Source: Escherichia coli O127:H6 str. E2348/69
GTDB lineage: Bacteria > Pseudomonadota > Gammaproteobacteria > Enterobacterales > Enterobacteriaceae
Assembly (NCBI RefSeq): GCF_000026545.1
Contig: NC_011601.1
Strand: one strand, 5' to 3'
Length of the DNA stretch: 64,000 nt
The translations under genes were made by a program, and so were the position numbers. This document shows, piece by piece, positions 31,944-38,564 of the stretch. Under the pieces are notes generated by a model. That model saw only the letters and a program-made list of their open reading frames with translations. It made no database searches and was not told the DNA's origin. The number at the start of each line of letters is the position of its first letter. Positions within the stretch are counted from its first letter, which is position 1.

Positions 31944-32471
31944 ATGATTTTTCTCATGACGAAAGATTCTTTTCTTTTACAGGGCTTTTGGCAGTTGAAA
32001 GATAATCACGAAATGATAAAAATCAATTCCCTGTCAGAGATCAAAAAAGTAGGCAATAAACCCTTCAAGGTGATCATTGACACCTATCACAACCATATCC
32101 TTGATGAAGAAGCGATTAAATTCCTGGAGAAATTAGATGCCGAGAGAATTATTGTTTTGGCACCTTATCACATCAGTAAACTAAAAGCTAAAGCGCCTAT
32201 TTATTTTGTCAGCCGTAAAGAAAGTATCAAAAATCTTCTTGAGATTACTTATGGTAAACACTTGCCCCATAAGAATTCACAACTATGTTTTTCACATAAT
32301 CAGTTCAAAATTATGCAACTGATTCTGAAAAACAAAAATGAAAGCAATATCACGTCAACGCTCAACATTTCGCAACAAACATTAAAGATTCAGAAATTCA
32401 ACATTATGTACAAGCTGAAATTAAGACGTATGAGCGACATCGTCACCCTGGGTATCACATCTTATTTTTAG
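31944..32471 (+). CDS. gadE: LuxR-family acid-resistance master regulator GadE
   Basis: 175 aa from MIFLMTKDSFLLQGFWQLKD with an aaggag SD; the ORF track starts 26 codons upstream. Confidence 0.92.
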   Translation: MIFLMTKDSFLLQGFWQLKDNHEMIKINSLSEIKKVGNKPFKVIIDTYHNHILDEEAIKFLEKLDAERIIVLAPYHISKLKAKAPIYFVSRKESIKNLLEITYGKHLPHKNSQLCFSHNQFKIMQLILKNKNESNITSTLNISQQTLKIQKFNIMYKLKLRRMSDIVTLGITSYF

Positions 32472-32809
32472 TAAGGACATAAGCAACTGAAATTGATGGC
32501 TGGCATGACGAGGGATGCAGATGCTGATTTCAATACCCCCGGTGATTATTGAAGGAGAGACGAAAACGACTTTATTCCCCTGGTATGTGTATCCACCAGT
32601 AGAACCCTTCGTTGCCCGAATGCTGGCAGAAACTGTTGGCAGAACGGCAACATTTTTTTTGTCGTTGACCTCACCATGTCGATCACTGTGCTTGCATCCC
32701 ATCTTACTGGCTGACAACCCCACTATGCCGCTGGTCTGTAAATCCCTCATATCTCTCCTCGCGCGCAATTTAAAGAACCGTTATTTCTCAAGAATTTTCA
32801 GGGACTAAA

Positions 32810-33967
32810 ATGAACAGAAGAAGAAAACTGTTAATACCGTTGTTATTCTGCGGCGCGATGCTCACCGCCTGCGATGACAAATCGGCGGAAAACGCCGCCG
32901 CCATGACGCCTGAGGTCGGTGTCGTCACACTCTCCCCCGGTTCGGTCAATGTGTTGAGCGAATTGCCCGGTAGAACCGTTCCTTATGAAGTTGCCGAGAT
33001 ACGTCCCCAGGTGGGCGGTATTATCATTAAACGCAACTTTATCGAAGGCGATAAAGTGAACCAGGGCGATTCGCTGTATCAGATTGATCCTGCGCCTTTA
33101 CAGGCAGAGCTGAACTCCGCCAAAGGCTCGCTGGCGAAAGCGCTCTCTACCGCCAGCAATGCCCGCATCACCTTTAACCGCCAGGCATCGTTGCTGAAGA
33201 CCAACTATGTTAGCCGTCAGGATTACGACACCGCGCGCACCCAGTTGAATGAAGCAGAAGCCAATGTCACCGTCGCCAAAGCGGCTGTTGAACAGGCGAC
33301 GATCAATCTGCAATACGCGAATGTCACCTCGCCGATTACGGGCGTCAGCGGGAAATCGTCGGTGACCGTCGGCGCACTCGTTACCGCTAATCAGGCAGAT
33401 TCGCTGGTTACCGTACAACGTCTGGACCCGATTTATGTCGATCTCACGCAGTCGGTGCAGGATTTCTTGCGCATGAAAGAAGAGGTCGCCAGTGGGCAAA
33501 TCAAACAGGTTCAGGGCAGTACGCCAGTACAGCTCAATCTGGAAAATGGTAAACGTTACGGCCAGACCGGCACGCTGAAATTCTCCGACCCGACGGTGGA
33601 TGAAACCACGGGCTCCGTGACGTTACGGGCGATTTTCCCCAACCCAAATGGTGACTTGCTGCCTGGCATGTATGTCACGGCATTAGTGGATGAAGGTAGC
33701 CGCCAGAATGTATTACTGGTGCCGCAGGAAGGCGTCACCCACAACGCCCAGGGTAAAGCAACGGCACTCATTCTGGATAAAGACGATGTCGTGCAGCTAC
33801 GCGAAATCGAAGCCAGCAAAGCCATCGGCGACCAGTGGGTTGTCACCTCTGGCTTGCAGGCTGGCGATCGGGTGATCGTTTCCGGTTTGCAACGCATTCG
33901 TCCGGGTATCAAAGCACGTGCAATTTCCTCCAGCCAGGAAAACGCCAGCACCGAATCGAAACAATAA
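32810..33967 (+). CDS. mdtE: Multidrug efflux membrane fusion protein MdtE
   Basis: 385-aa ORF with lipoprotein signal (LTAC) and HlyD/AcrA-family domains. Confidence 0.95.
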   Translation: MNRRRKLLIPLLFCGAMLTACDDKSAENAAAMTPEVGVVTLSPGSVNVLSELPGRTVPYEVAEIRPQVGGIIIKRNFIEGDKVNQGDSLYQIDPAPLQAELNSAKGSLAKALSTASNARITFNRQASLLKTNYVSRQDYDTARTQLNEAEANVTVAKAAVEQATINLQYANVTSPITGVSGKSSVTVGALVTANQADSLVTVQRLDPIYVDLTQSVQDFLRMKEEVASGQIKQVQGSTPVQLNLENGKRYGQTGTLKFSDPTVDETTGSVTLRAIFPNPNGDLLPGMYVTALVDEGSRQNVLLVPQEGVTHNAQGKATALILDKDDVVQLREIEASKAIGDQWVVTSGLQAGDRVIVSGLQRIRPGIKARAISSSQENASTESKQ

Positions 33968-33991: not shown

Positions 33992-36900
33992 ATGGCTAAC
34001 TATTTTATTGATCGCCCGGTTTTTGCCTGGGTACTTGCCATTATTATGATGCTTGCAGGCGGTCTGGCGATCATGAACTTACCGGTTGCGCAGTATCCGC
34101 AGATTGCGCCACCGACCATTACCATCAGCGCAACCTATCCGGGTGCCGATGCGCAAACGGTAGAAGACTCGGTCACTCAGGTGATTGAGCAAAATATGAA
34201 TGGGCTTGATGGCCTGATGTACATGTCTTCAACCAGCGATGCGGCAGGTAATGCCTCCATCACTCTGACCTTCGAGACGGGGACATCGCCTGATATCGCA
34301 CAGGTTCAGGTGCAAAATAAACTGCAACTCGCTATGCCTTCATTACCTGAAGCGGTGCAGCAGCAGGGGATTAGCGTCGATAAGTCGAGCAGTAATATCC
34401 TGATGGTAGCGGCATTTATTTCTGATAACGGCAGCCTCAACCAGTACGATATCGCGGACTATGTAGCGTCTAATATCAAAGACCCGCTAAGCCGTACCGC
34501 GGGCGTTGGTAGCGTACAGCTCTTTGGTTCCGAGTACGCCATGCGTATCTGGCTGGACCCGCAAAAACTCAATAAATATAACCTGGTACCTTCCGATGTT
34601 ATTTCCCAGATTAAGGTGCAAAACAACCAGATTTCCGGTGGTCAACTGGGTGGCATGCCACAGGCGGCAGACCAGCAACTGAACGCCTCGATCATTGTGC
34701 AGACGCGTCTGCAAACGCCGGAAGAATTTGGCAAAATCCTGTTGAAAGTTCAGCAAGATGGTTCGCAAGTGCTGCTGCGTGATGTCGCCCGCGTCGAACT
34801 TGGGGCGGAAGATTATTCCACCGTGGCGCGCTATAACGGCAAACCTGCTGCCGGGATCGCCATCAAACTGGCTACCGGAGCAAACGCCCTGGATACCTCG
34901 CGAGCGGTGAAAGAGGAGCTGAACCGTTTATCGGCTTATTTCCCTGCAAGCCTGAAGACGGTTTATCCTTACGACACCACACCGTTTATCAAAATTTCTA
35001 TTCAGGAAGTTTTCAAAACGCTGGTTGAGGCTATCATCCTCGTCTTCCTGGTCATGTATCTGTTTTTGCAGAATTTCCGCGCCACAATCATCCCGACGAT
35101 TGCCGTACCGGTGGTTATTCTCGGGACGTTTGCGATCTTGTCGGCGGTCGGTTTCACCATCAACACGTTAACTATGTTCGGGATGGTGCTGGCGATAGGG
35201 TTACTGGTGGATGACGCCATCGTGGTGGTGGAGAACGTCGAGCGTGTCATTGCGGAAGATAAGCTACCGCCGAAGGAAGCGACGCATAAATCGATGGGGC
35301 AGATCCAACGTGCGCTGGTCGGGATTGCCGTTGTTCTTTCCGCAGTGTTTATGCCGATGGCCTTTATGAGCGGTGCGACCGGGGAGATCTACCGCCAGTT
35401 CTCCATCACGCTGATCTCCTCCATGCTGCTTTCAGTATTTGTAGCAATGAGCCTGACCCCTGCCCTGTGCGCCACCATTCTGAAAGCCGCGCCGGAGGGC
35501 GGTCACAAACCTAACGCCCTGTTCGCACGCTTCAACACGCTGTTTGAAAAATCAACTCAGCACTATACCGACAGCACCCGCTCGCTGTTGCGTTGTACCG
35601 GTCGCTACATGGTGGTCTACCTGCTGATTTGCGCCGGGATGGCGGTGCTGTTCCTGCGTACGCCGACCTCTTTCTTACCAGAAGAGGATCAGGGGGTATT
35701 TATGACCACCGCGCAGTTACCTTCCGGTGCAACCATGGTTAACACCACGAAAGTGCTACAACAGGTGACGGATTATTATCTGACAAAAGAGAAAAATAAT
35801 GTTCAGTCGGTGTTTACCGTTGGTGGCTTTGGCTTCAGTGGTCAGGGGCAAAACAACGGTCTGGCGTTTATCAGCCTCAAGCCGTGGTCTGAACGTGTCG
35901 GCGAGGAAAACTCGGTTACCGCGATTATTCAGCGGGCAATGATTGCGCTAAGCAGTATCAATAAAGCCGTCGTCTTCCCGTTCAACTTACCCGCGGTGGC
36001 TGAACTGGGTACCGCGTCAGGTTTTGATATGGAACTGCTGGACAACGGCAATCTGGGGCACGAAAAGCTGACCCAGGCGCGAAACGAGCTGTTATCACTG
36101 GCAGCGCAATCACCGAATCAGGTCATCGGGGTACGCCCGAACGGCCTGGAAGATACGCCGATGTTCAAAGTGAACGTCAACGCTGCGAAAGCCGAGGCTA
36201 TGGGTGTGGCGCTGTCTGATATCAACCAGACAATTTCCACCGCCTTCGGCAGCAGCTACGTGAACGACTTCCTCAACCAGGGGCGGGTGAAAAAAGTGTA
36301 TGTCCAGGCAGGCACGCCGTTCCGTATGTTGCCGGATAACATCAACCAATGGTATGTACGCAACGCCTCTGGCACGATGGCACCGCTTTCTGCCTATTCG
36401 TCTACCGAATGGACCTATGGTTCACCGCGACTGGAACGCTACAACGGCATCCCGTCAATGGAGATTTTAGGTGAAGCGGCTGCCGGGAAAAGTACCGGTG
36501 ACGCCATGAAATTTATGGCAGACCTGGTCGCAAAACTTCCGGCAGGCGTCGGCTACTCATGGACCGGGCTGTCGTATCAGGAAGCGTTATCCTCAAACCA
36601 GGCTCCCGCGCTATATGCCATTTCACTGGTCGTGGTGTTCCTCGCCCTCGCCGCACTTTATGAAAGCTGGTCAATTCCGTTCTCGGTGATGTTGGTTGTT
36701 CCGTTAGGCGTCGTTGGCGCATTACTGGCCACCGATCTGCGCGGCTTAAGTAATGACGTTTACTTCCAGGTTGGTTTGCTGACCACCATCGGGCTTTCCG
36801 CCAAGAACGCCATCCTGATTGTCGAATTTGCCGTTGAGATGATGCAGAAAGAAGGGAAAACGCCGGTAGAGGCAATCATCGAAGCAGCGCGTATGCGTTT

Positions 36901-37105
36901 ACGCCCAATCCTGATGACTTCTCTGGCCTTTATTCTCGGCGTGCTGCCGCTGGTTATCAGTCATGGTGCCGGCTCTGGCGCGCAAAACGCGGTAGGTACC
37001 GGCGTAATGGGCGGGATGTTTGCCGCAACAGTGCTGGCAATTTACTTCGTTCCGGTCTTTTTCGTTGTAGTGGAACATCTCTTTGCCCGCTTTAAAAAAG
37101 CGTAA
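33992..37105 (+). CDS. mdtF: RND multidrug efflux transporter MdtF
   Basis: 1037-aa AcrB-family 12-TM ORF. Confidence 0.96.
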
Positions 37106-37467
37106 CGTGTAAATGAGAGTAAGGTTGAACGTGAAGGTTCAGCCTTACTCTTTCCTGCTAACCATTCACCACTCAACAACCAGCTAACCGTCAGGAATAC
37201 CAGGCTTAGTACACAGCACTGAAAGTAGAAACCACTCCAGCCATTCGTCATCAATTTGAACAGCACAATACTGACCCACATTCCCGTAATCGTATGAATT
37301 GTTAGCTTAATAATCCCAAACATGCCGAGTCTTTTCCTCCTGAAAATACCTATACCGCCTGGCAAACTGCGAAAGAGAACTAGCCGGTAGCTCGTCAGAA
37401 ATCATCAGGAAAGAGTTTCACATGAAGCAGACGTGAGATCCTGACCAATATTCAAATGCGAAATATG

Positions 37468-38196: not shown

Positions 38197-38442
38197 GACT
38201 ATTCCTTATATTTCATTACTGCGATTATTTCAATGTCAGTATACTAATGAAATGACGCCAGACTGTTTCTGTGTGCAAAAACTGCCATATTTGGTAGGAC
38301 CAAATTTTATCCACAAAGTAGTTTTGCATAACAGTTAATTGATAATAAGTAAATGCAACACGATTATATTTTCACACAGCGTATAGCTTATGTTTATAAA
38401 AAAATGGCTGATCTTATTTCCAGTAAAAGTTATATTTAACTT

Positions 38443-38548
38443 ACTGAGAGCACAAAGTTTCCCGTGCCAACAGGGAGTGTTATAACGGTTTATTAGTCTG
38501 GAGACGGCAGACTATCCTCTTCCCGGTCCCCTATGCCGGGTTTTTTTT
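38443..38548 (+). ncRNA. gadY: GadY small RNA (overlaps the gadX 3' UTR on the opposite strand)
   Basis: actgagagcacaaagtttcccgtgccaacagggag...ccggtcccctatgccgggtttttttt matches my recollection of GadY and ends in an intrinsic terminator. Confidence 0.75.
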
Positions 38549-38564
38549 ATGTCTGAGTAAAACT

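Follow-up and report, generated by a model that had tools for sequence, protein, structure and literature searches.

The spacer between gadE and mdtE in the E. coli acid fitness island holds an open reading frame of 97 codons, here called ORF97, that ends almost at the mdtE start codon. The question raised by this locus is whether ORF97 is a gene or an open string lying over DNA that serves another purpose. The window is a 64,000-nucleotide stretch of Escherichia coli O127:H6 str. E2348/69, in which gadE (31944-32471), mdtE (32810-33967), and mdtF (33992-37105) all lie on the plus strand. ORF97 runs from ATG 32515 to TAA 32806-32808, also on the plus strand, and has a length of 294 nt. One base (32809) separates its stop from the mdtE ATG at 32810. 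The sequence-only reading had placed a GAGGG upstream of the frame and its stop 1 nt before the mdtE ATG; those coordinates are exact, and the juxtaposition with mdtE holds.

31944-32471, plus strand: gadE coding sequence, 175 codons; its 3' UTR runs through GadF to the terminator.
32487-32527, plus strand: conserved block in the gadE 3' UTR, 5' of mature GadF; contains the ORF97 Shine-Dalgarno sequence and both ATGs.
32510-32514, plus strand: GAGGG, Shine-Dalgarno-like, 7 nt 5' of ATG 32521; pairing with the GadF CCCCUGG region is predicted for the precursor.
32515-32808, plus strand: ORF97; exists as a string and is not considered a gene (it lacks a coding signature and is interrupted in natural lineages).

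ORF97 has two possible starts. The GAGGG at 32510-32514 directly adjoins the first ATG, a spacing too short for initiation at 32515. A second in-frame ATG at 32521 gives the arrangement GAGG-N7-ATG, which is correctly spaced, and ATG 32521 is the start used by gene callers in the few genomes where ORF97 has been called. To judge the length of the frame, the 338-nt spacer was shuffled 5,000 times with its dinucleotide composition preserved. In 10% of the shuffles, one of the six frames was open for 97 codons or more, and the length of ORF97 by itself is no more than chance expectation.

We consider ORF97 to be a chance open frame over a non-coding functional RNA and not a gene, with a probability of roughly 0.8. 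The gadE 3' UTR, from which the Hfq-dependent small RNA (sRNA) GadF is processed, ends at a strong intrinsic terminator. The DNA under ORF97 is made up of the gadE 3' UTR with GadF, a fast-evolving stretch, and the mdtE leader with its ribosome-binding site. Selection would act on the GadF seeds, the terminator stem, the U-tract, and the mdtE ribosome-binding site, and on no part of the peptide; ORF97 is presumably untranslated. The element positions, the evolutionary pattern, and the frame-breaking alleles come from this analysis, and GadF function, Hfq binding, and processing are taken from the literature. The frame had already been thought most likely non-coding, a view now supported by the presence of GadF beneath it, by natural breaks, and by the lack of a coding signature.

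32570-32660, plus strand: GadF sRNA (K-12 b4718, 3658992-3659082, mapped by offset); Rfam ES205 covers 32589-32660.
32577-32599, plus strand: GadF seed region, CCCCUGG at 32577-32583 and CACCAG at 32594-32599, both within invariant blocks.
32611-32660, plus strand: intrinsic terminator of gadE/GadF, with an interrupted hairpin at 32611-32651 and U8 at 32653-32660.
32661-32720, plus strand: fast-evolving stretch right after the U-tract, part of a C-rich, G-poor segment, with a 9- or 12-nt indel between species.

GadF is an Hfq-bound sRNA that is processed from the gadE 3' UTR (Melamed 2016). In the window, the Rfam family RF02754 (ES205) matches 32589-32660 on the plus strand over the whole model (1-72 of 72), with 106.5 bits against a gathering score of 86 and an E-value of 1.8e-18. 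The GadF site lies on the same strand as gadE, directly 3' of the gadE stop (32471), and ends in a Rho-independent terminator with a U-tract. In the curated K-12 record (NC_000913.3), gadF (b4718) is the sole feature in the spacer, and no coding sequence is annotated there on either strand. Hfq CLASH identified CCAGGGG and CUGGUG as target motifs for GadF (Iosub 2020), and the two seeds in the window are the complements of these motifs. The effect of GadF on cfa is minor (Bianco 2019). Another report, on sRNA-17, was set aside because it concerns a different locus.

GadF accounts for 91 of the 294 nt of ORF97. The remainder lies in the 3' UTR upstream of it (~55 nt) and in the mdtE leader (~150 nt). 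The mature sRNA (32570-32660) includes neither of the ORF97 starts (32515 and 32521), so GadF itself cannot encode ORF97. The suggestion that a gadE 3' UTR sRNA lies under the frame is thus confirmed by GadF, and the accompanying suggestion of an active mdtEF promoter in the spacer is left unsettled (Deng et al. 2013).

The terminator fold has an energy of -30 kcal/mol and a z-score of -2.9, and the fold of the 3' UTR as a whole is no better than that of shuffles (z = -0.69). The outer stem of the terminator and U8 are invariant. Changes in the inner stem preserve pairing (G-U to G-C or A-U) and at the same time alter the amino acids of ORF97. A consensus fold pairs the block that contains the Shine-Dalgarno sequence and the ATGs with the GadF seed region, and the changes found there are one-sided, with no compensatory pairs. 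Pairing of the Shine-Dalgarno block with the GadF seed in the precursor is only a suggestion from this predicted fold.

Conserved stretches of the spacer are found at 32496-32525, at 32571-32600 (the seeds), at 32646-32660 (the 3' arm of the terminator and U8), at 32721-32750, and at 32796-32810 (the mdtE ribosome-binding site). Invariant columns make up only 13-27% of 32661-32705 and 40% of 32706-32720. As read from the alignment, conservation tracks the RNA elements, not the ORF97 peptide.

Matches in the protein database are biased to genomes in which ORF97 has been called, and the locus was therefore re-sampled by DNA, by scanning species-representative genomes with the GadE protein. The sources were E. 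coli, Escherichia sp. MOD1-EC7003, strain E69, E. whittamii, E. albertii, and Escherichia sp. E1V33. One locus (L009), on a contig labeled 'Flavobacterium', was left out as an error-ridden contaminant in which mdtE is broken. Across the eight Escherichia lineages sampled, parsimony assigns 156 substitutions to ORF97, and these are spread over codon positions 1, 2, and 3 as 52, 50, and 54. Within E. coli, the dN/dS of ORF97 is 0.9-2.6; between species, it is 0.44-0.50, which falls inside the range of five control frames (0.43-1.15 between species). For gadE and mdtE, dN/dS is 0.01-0.11 in all comparisons. Purifying selection on the ORF97 peptide, looked for in dN/dS and as a third-position excess, is absent, and ORF97 does not show the pattern of a protein gene.

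A small gene from the same island shows what these tests can detect. This gene, sORF15, has a length of 93 aa, is induced by acid, and lies in the gadW 3' UTR (37042-37323, minus strand); it is supported by Ribo-seq and by Western blot (Schumacher et al. 2023). Its dN/dS is 0-0.14 within E. coli and 0.07-0.23 between species, and its variable sites fall on the three codon positions as 11, 10, and 32. Because sORF15 shows purifying selection in the same tests, the tests are able to detect a small gene of this size here. Comparative genomics of the spacer, which had been proposed as a check, thus finds ORF97 without a coding signature, whereas nearby sORF15 has one.

Codon usage, another check proposed from the letters, turned out to be less informative. 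ORF97 does score low, with -0.17 bits per codon, below all 138 real-gene windows (real genes, +0.27 ± 0.13). However, sORF15, which has experimental support, reaches only -0.15 with this model; codon usage is therefore non-discriminating and was dropped as evidence against ORF97.

The frame is broken in natural populations at the U-tract of the terminator, where a length polymorphism (T8, T7, T9, or T6) changes the phase. A change from T8 to T7 truncates ORF97 to 50 codons (TTT TTT TGT CGT TGA), with the stop 9 nt after the U-tract and 141 nt from mdtE. The spacer is found in 5,411 of 5,426 complete E. coli genomes. Among 3,455 complete genomes with a K-12-like or window-like flank, 3,221 are T8, 229 are T7, and 2 are T9; among 1,914 with a second flank allele, 1,900 are T8 and 10 are T7. 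The total for T7 is about 239 of 5,369 complete genomes, on two haplotypes, and T6 was seen in one genome among 5,413 matching genomes. Versions of ORF97 in the protein database also change phase at the U-tract, in keeping with a T6 or T9 length.

Carriers of T7 on the window-like haplotype include IAI39, CE10, and AR_0013, and carriers on the K-12-like haplotype include Sanji, M217, and many similar 4.8-Mb clinical isolates. The occurrence of T7 on two haplotypes points to at least two origins, each fixed in a lineage. Both gadE and mdtE are intact in the T7 loci long enough for this check (IAI39, CE10, and Sanji). Sequencing error was considered for T7, given the two haplotypes and the many long-read assemblies among the carriers, and was rejected as the main explanation. 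The T7 rate differs 13-fold between the haplotype groups (6.6% vs 0.5%), IAI39 and CE10 are early finished reference genomes, and T7 also occurs in metagenomic DNA with intact flanks; each of these argues against error.

On metagenome contigs, ORF97 is intact in 23 of 28 copies. Three of the five broken copies were discarded, as gadE or mdtE is also broken there and the contigs have 1-2x coverage. The two credible broken copies have intact flanking genes; one is T7 (L023), and the other (L030) has a 13-nt deletion, 32731-32743, that leaves 36 nt between the ORF97 stop and mdtE. A further locus (L003) has a +1 insertion near the 3' end that produces a TGA stop overlapping the mdtE ATG (ATGA). 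The frame is thus not intact across strains and relatives, being altered by T7, by the 13-nt deletion, and by this 3' shift. Frame-disrupting indels in other strains had been named in advance as evidence against gene status, and they do occur, in ~239 T7 genomes and in the contig with the 13-nt deletion.

No relatives of ORF97 were found outside Escherichia by a word-seeded and a full profile search, and all matches are from the same locus. ORF97 belongs to no Pfam family. It has no confident fold; the AlphaFold mean pLDDT is 58 with a pTM of 0.47, and the five models disagree (39-58). No translated ORF is given at this locus in the supplementary lists of Stringer 2021 and PIRT-seq. Nothing in the published small-ORF lists examined points to translation of ORF97, a weak negative with partial coverage of the published data. 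Log-phase studies barely express gadE, and the acid-stress study was filtered for 10-70 aa, which weakens these negatives.

The ORF97 stop adjoins mdtE, and the mdtE leader therefore bears on the meaning of the frame.

32722-32751, plus strand: second conserved block, ACTATGCCGCTGGTCTGTAAATCCCTCATA, in the mdtE leader; partly deleted in one metagenome contig (L030, 32731-32743).
32800-33967, plus strand: mdtE with its ribosome-binding site; Shine-Dalgarno AGGGA at 32800-32804, ATG at 32810, 385 codons, lipoprotein signal MNRRRKLLIPLLFCGAMLTA followed by C.

The ORF97 stop (TAA, 32806-32808) falls within the ribosome-binding region of mdtE. It adjoins the mdtE ATG because the TAA happens to lie within the conserved, A-rich spacer between the mdtE Shine-Dalgarno sequence and its start. 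A PmdtE-lacZ fusion was inactive, and mdtEF is co-transcribed from the gadE promoters (Deng et al. 2013). A scan of 32300-32900 found no sigma-70-like promoter. Given this co-transcription of mdtEF and gadE, there is a read-through mRNA that includes ORF97. Such an RNA has a rut-like composition downstream of the terminator (43 C vs 21 G in 32661-32790).

One aspect of the frame is only partly explained. ORF97 is open in all eight Escherichia lineages sampled, with 97-101 codons, including E. albertii and E. whittamii, and its internal indels between species are 9 and 12 nt, which keep the frame. The other two plus-strand phases contain 17 stop-trinucleotide sites, and the ORF97 phase contains none. 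Of these 17 sites, nine do not depend on the window sequence, and the corresponding probability is (2/3)^9 = 0.026. In simulations, all eight lineages stayed open in 0.6% of runs when substitutions were re-placed anywhere, and in 1.8% when they were re-placed among variable columns only. With the simulation made conditional on an open window copy, which corrects for ascertainment, the proportion was 1.3-3.8%. When positions were fixed and only target bases were randomized, it was 51%. That the frame stays open in all eight lineages amounts to a modest signal, noted post hoc, with P of about 0.01-0.04.

This signal is one of the reasons to weigh translation of ORF97. The main rival reading, though unlikely, is that ribosomes translate ORF97 as a leader or spacer ORF of the gadE-mdtEF transcript, in full or at any rate over its first 47-50 codons, and that the act of translation matters and not the peptide. 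Doubtful to a like degree is the mechanism that would follow, in which ribosomes crossing the GadF hairpin would suppress termination and shield the C-rich RNA from Rho. The proposed outcome is just as tentative; read-through into mdtEF would be favored over release of GadF, and T8 strains would also have ribosomes brought to the mdtE start. The frame being open in eight lineages (P 0.013-0.038) speaks for such a translated leader, although this signal vanishes once substitution positions are fixed, and the first 47 codons alone are not significant, having four independent stop sites, (2/3)^4 = 0.2. The GAGGG and the GAGG-N7-ATG at 32521 are invariant in the eight lineages; their conservation has an RNA-level alternative in the predicted pairing of the same block with the GadF seed region. 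In every lineage, T7 strains included, the frame is open from the start to the U-tract, and the hairpin begins at 32611, 30 codons past ATG 32521, so the spanning geometry is present, a function not being implied by it. The rut-like composition of 32661-32790, the co-transcription of mdtEF with gadE, and the silent PmdtE fusion (Deng 2013) also agree with a translated leader, and the flat codon-position pattern is what would be expected of an ORF without constraint on its product. Against it, no translation is seen in any study examined, mdtE has its own well-spaced Shine-Dalgarno sequence, and the T7 and 13-nt-deletion lineages lose the juxtaposition yet keep mdtE intact. Translational coupling through the adjacent stop and start, which the sequence-only reading had allowed for, fits the 1-nt gap of T8 strains and fails with the gaps of 141 nt in T7 and 36 nt in the deleted copy. 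Less probable again is a product-independent switch operated from the GAGG-N7-ATG at 32521, in which translation would prevent the hairpin, shield the RNA from Rho, and lead to production of MdtEF. The other state of this switch, equally remote, is one in which an untranslated ORF97 would let transcription end at U8 and GadF be released. A switch of this kind would explain how the frame stays open in eight lineages while the peptide drifts freely.

Two further explanations invoke a protein, and a frame on the opposite strand enters into one of them.

32421-32750, minus strand: antisense ORF, PGAP 'hypothetical protein' WP_001205317.1 (shorter in K-12, WP_001205329.1); judged spurious.

It is very improbable that ORF97 encodes a true orphan protein of 95-101 aa, specific to Escherichia and functional in its own right. 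Every sampled species does have the frame open and co-linear, with indels that keep the phase, ATG 32521 has a plausible ribosome-binding site, and the dN/dS between species (0.44-0.50) ranks lowest, or ties for lowest, among the six frames compared. Yet the even spread of its substitutions (52/50/54), a dN/dS of about 1 or higher within E. coli, and truncation to 50 codons in lineages including IAI39 and CE10 are at odds with a selected product, as are the lack of homologs, domains, and a confident fold. Its conserved residues fall exactly on the GadF seeds and the terminator, the ORF is absent from the curated K-12 annotation, and sORF15, a real small gene, gives quite different results in these tests. 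Equally improbable is the proposal that the antisense ORF is the real gene and ORF97 its shadow. PGAP annotates the antisense ORF in almost all of the 5,411 genomes and leaves ORF97 uncalled, and the antisense ORF is also called on >1,000 contigs in the protein collection. The pair of long frames (ORF97 plus 103 codons open on the other strand) arises in only 0.36% of the shuffles and is rarer than ORF97 alone. Still, the antisense ORF has stops in E. albertii and in strain E69, varies in length by strain (92/93, 98, 110, and 115 aa), and is flagged by PGAP as frameshifted in T7 strains. Its differences between the window and K-12 are 9 non-synonymous and 0 synonymous changes, its dN/dS is 0.6-0.7 between species, and it scores -0.19 on codon usage; no Pfam family matches it, and it is absent from the curated K-12 annotation.

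A chance frame over GadF remains the preferred reading, and its parts can be compared with known systems. The likeness to GadF (b4718; RF02754) includes the same strand, a full-length covariance match, the U8 terminator, and the seeds; the difference is that GadF covers 91 of 294 nt, and we found no description of it as coding. ORF97 also resembles the spurious 'hypothetical protein' ORFs, which are confined to one genus, contain no domain, change by neutral substitutions, and lie over a functional non-coding element. The antisense ORF, with its variable length, is an example of this class at the same locus. Unlike the antisense ORF, ORF97 is almost never called by pipelines and is open in more lineages.

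The geometry of ORF97 is like that of trpL-type attenuators and of MdtU upstream of mdtJI (cited in PMC10746267), namely an ORF on the same transcript that spans an intrinsic terminator and ends at the start of an efflux-pump gene. The trpL-type and MdtU ORFs are short, are shown to be translated, and have defined regulatory codons or antiterminator structures. For ORF97, by contrast, no alternative antiterminator structure came to light, and T7 strains have lost the link to mdtE. AzuCR, SgrS/SgrT, and the candidate small ORFs in OmrA, OmrB, and RybB (PMC10746267) are cases in which an ORF and a base-pairing sRNA share nucleotides, as ORF97 and GadF do. In such dual-function sRNAs, the ORF is located inside the sRNA and translated from it, whereas mature GadF lacks the ORF97 start. 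sORF15 is like ORF97 in its similar length, its island, its position in a 3' UTR, its poor codon score (-0.15), and in being unannotated in K-12. It differs in its strong purifying selection and in its Ribo-seq and Western support.

The functional content of the spacer, i.e., GadF, the terminator, and the mdtE leader, is already known. For annotation hygiene, ORF97 should not be called a gene, and there is as little support for the antisense 'hypothetical protein' that PGAP annotates in thousands of RefSeq E. coli genomes. If the improbable switch were true, E. coli would choose between release of an acid-stress sRNA and production of an efflux pump from one transcript. This would be of interest to the sRNA and efflux fields; nothing here shows it.

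The start of mdtE itself is annotated differently between records. PGAP places it at 32858 and the curated K-12 record at the equivalent of 32810. ATG 32810 is invariant, follows an AGGGA at a distance of 5 nt, and is the first codon of a lipoprotein signal peptide; ATG 32858 is ATA in three Escherichia species. Because of this invariance, the AGGGA, the lipoprotein signal, and the curated K-12 start, 32810 is the better start for mdtE, and the PGAP start probably removes the lipoprotein signal peptide.

Antisense to GadF, the sRNA derived from the gadE 3' UTR, lies an ORF that PGAP calls in almost every one of the 5,411 complete E. coli genomes in RefSeq. This ORF and the other features of the region and its surroundings are as follows.

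32421-32750, minus strand: antisense ORF, annotated by PGAP as 'hypothetical protein' (WP_001205317.1, WP_001205329.1, WP_001205333.1)
32487-32527, plus strand: strongly conserved 41-nt block in the gadE 3' UTR, ahead of the point where mature GadF begins (32570)
32722-32751, plus strand: conserved 30-mer ACTATGCCGCTGGTCTGTAAATCCCTCATA, the core of segment 32661-32790
37042-37323, minus strand: sORF15, 93 aa, in the gadW 3' UTR
38440-38553, plus strand: GadY sRNA (Rfam RF00122, full-length match, 150 bits)

The antisense ORF is probably a spurious call that has been propagated. It is interrupted by stops in E. albertii and in Escherichia strain E69, and the window differs from K-12 by nine non-synonymous and no synonymous changes within it. 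PGAP labels it 'frameshifted' in strains carrying T7, a length allele of the GadF terminator U-tract, and the curated K-12 record (NC_000913.3) does not contain it.

This U-tract (32653-32660) varies in length within E. coli. T8 is found in ~95% of genomes and T7 in ~4.5%, while T6 and T9 are rare. Between the two flank haplotypes, the frequency of T7 differs 13-fold. The loci concerned are the window tract and sampled gadE–mdtE loci L011-L013, L015, L023, and L046-L048. The spacer of locus L041 (an ERZ832973 contig) and database protein P0006 is recombinant: its 5' part, as far as the U-tract, is E. coli-like, and the remainder up to mdtE is E. albertii-like and has the 12-nt insertion of that type. 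The breakpoint is apparently within or close to the invariant terminator. E. coli gadE–mdtE sequence also occurs on contigs of two assemblies labelled as other genera, which look like contamination in public assemblies. One, labelled Flavobacterium paronense (L009), carries many frameshifts, and the other, labelled Streptomyces sp. DH24 (L010), holds a 466-bp fragment with 100% identity.

Upstream of mature GadF, RNAalifold pairs the conserved block, including its GAGGG, with the GadF seed region CCCCUGG/CACCAG. Because of this predicted pairing, which is supported by one-sided changes only, the block could serve as an anti-seed within the GadF precursor molecule itself. Downstream of the terminator, plus-strand segment 32661-32790 is G-poor and C-rich (21 G, 43 C), with GC skew down to -0.41, a rut-like composition. 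A natural 13-nt deletion in locus L030 removes part of its 30-mer core.

PGAP places the mdtE start at 32858 (+), giving a 369-aa product stripped of its lipoprotein signal peptide (MNRRRKLLIPLLFCGAMLTA/C). In E69, E. whittamii, and Escherichia sp. E1V33, the codon at this position reads ATA. The ATG at 32810 is invariant and follows AGGGA at a distance of 5 nt; NC_000913.3 uses this start.

sORF15 is a 93-aa ORF named by Schumacher et al. (2023) and is not annotated in NC_000913.3. It is convergent with mdtF and shares the last 64 nt of that gene. Its purifying selection is clear (dN/dS 0-0.23; variable sites 11/10/32) and supports sORF15 as a real gene. GadY is an already known feature, and its position fits the acid fitness island.
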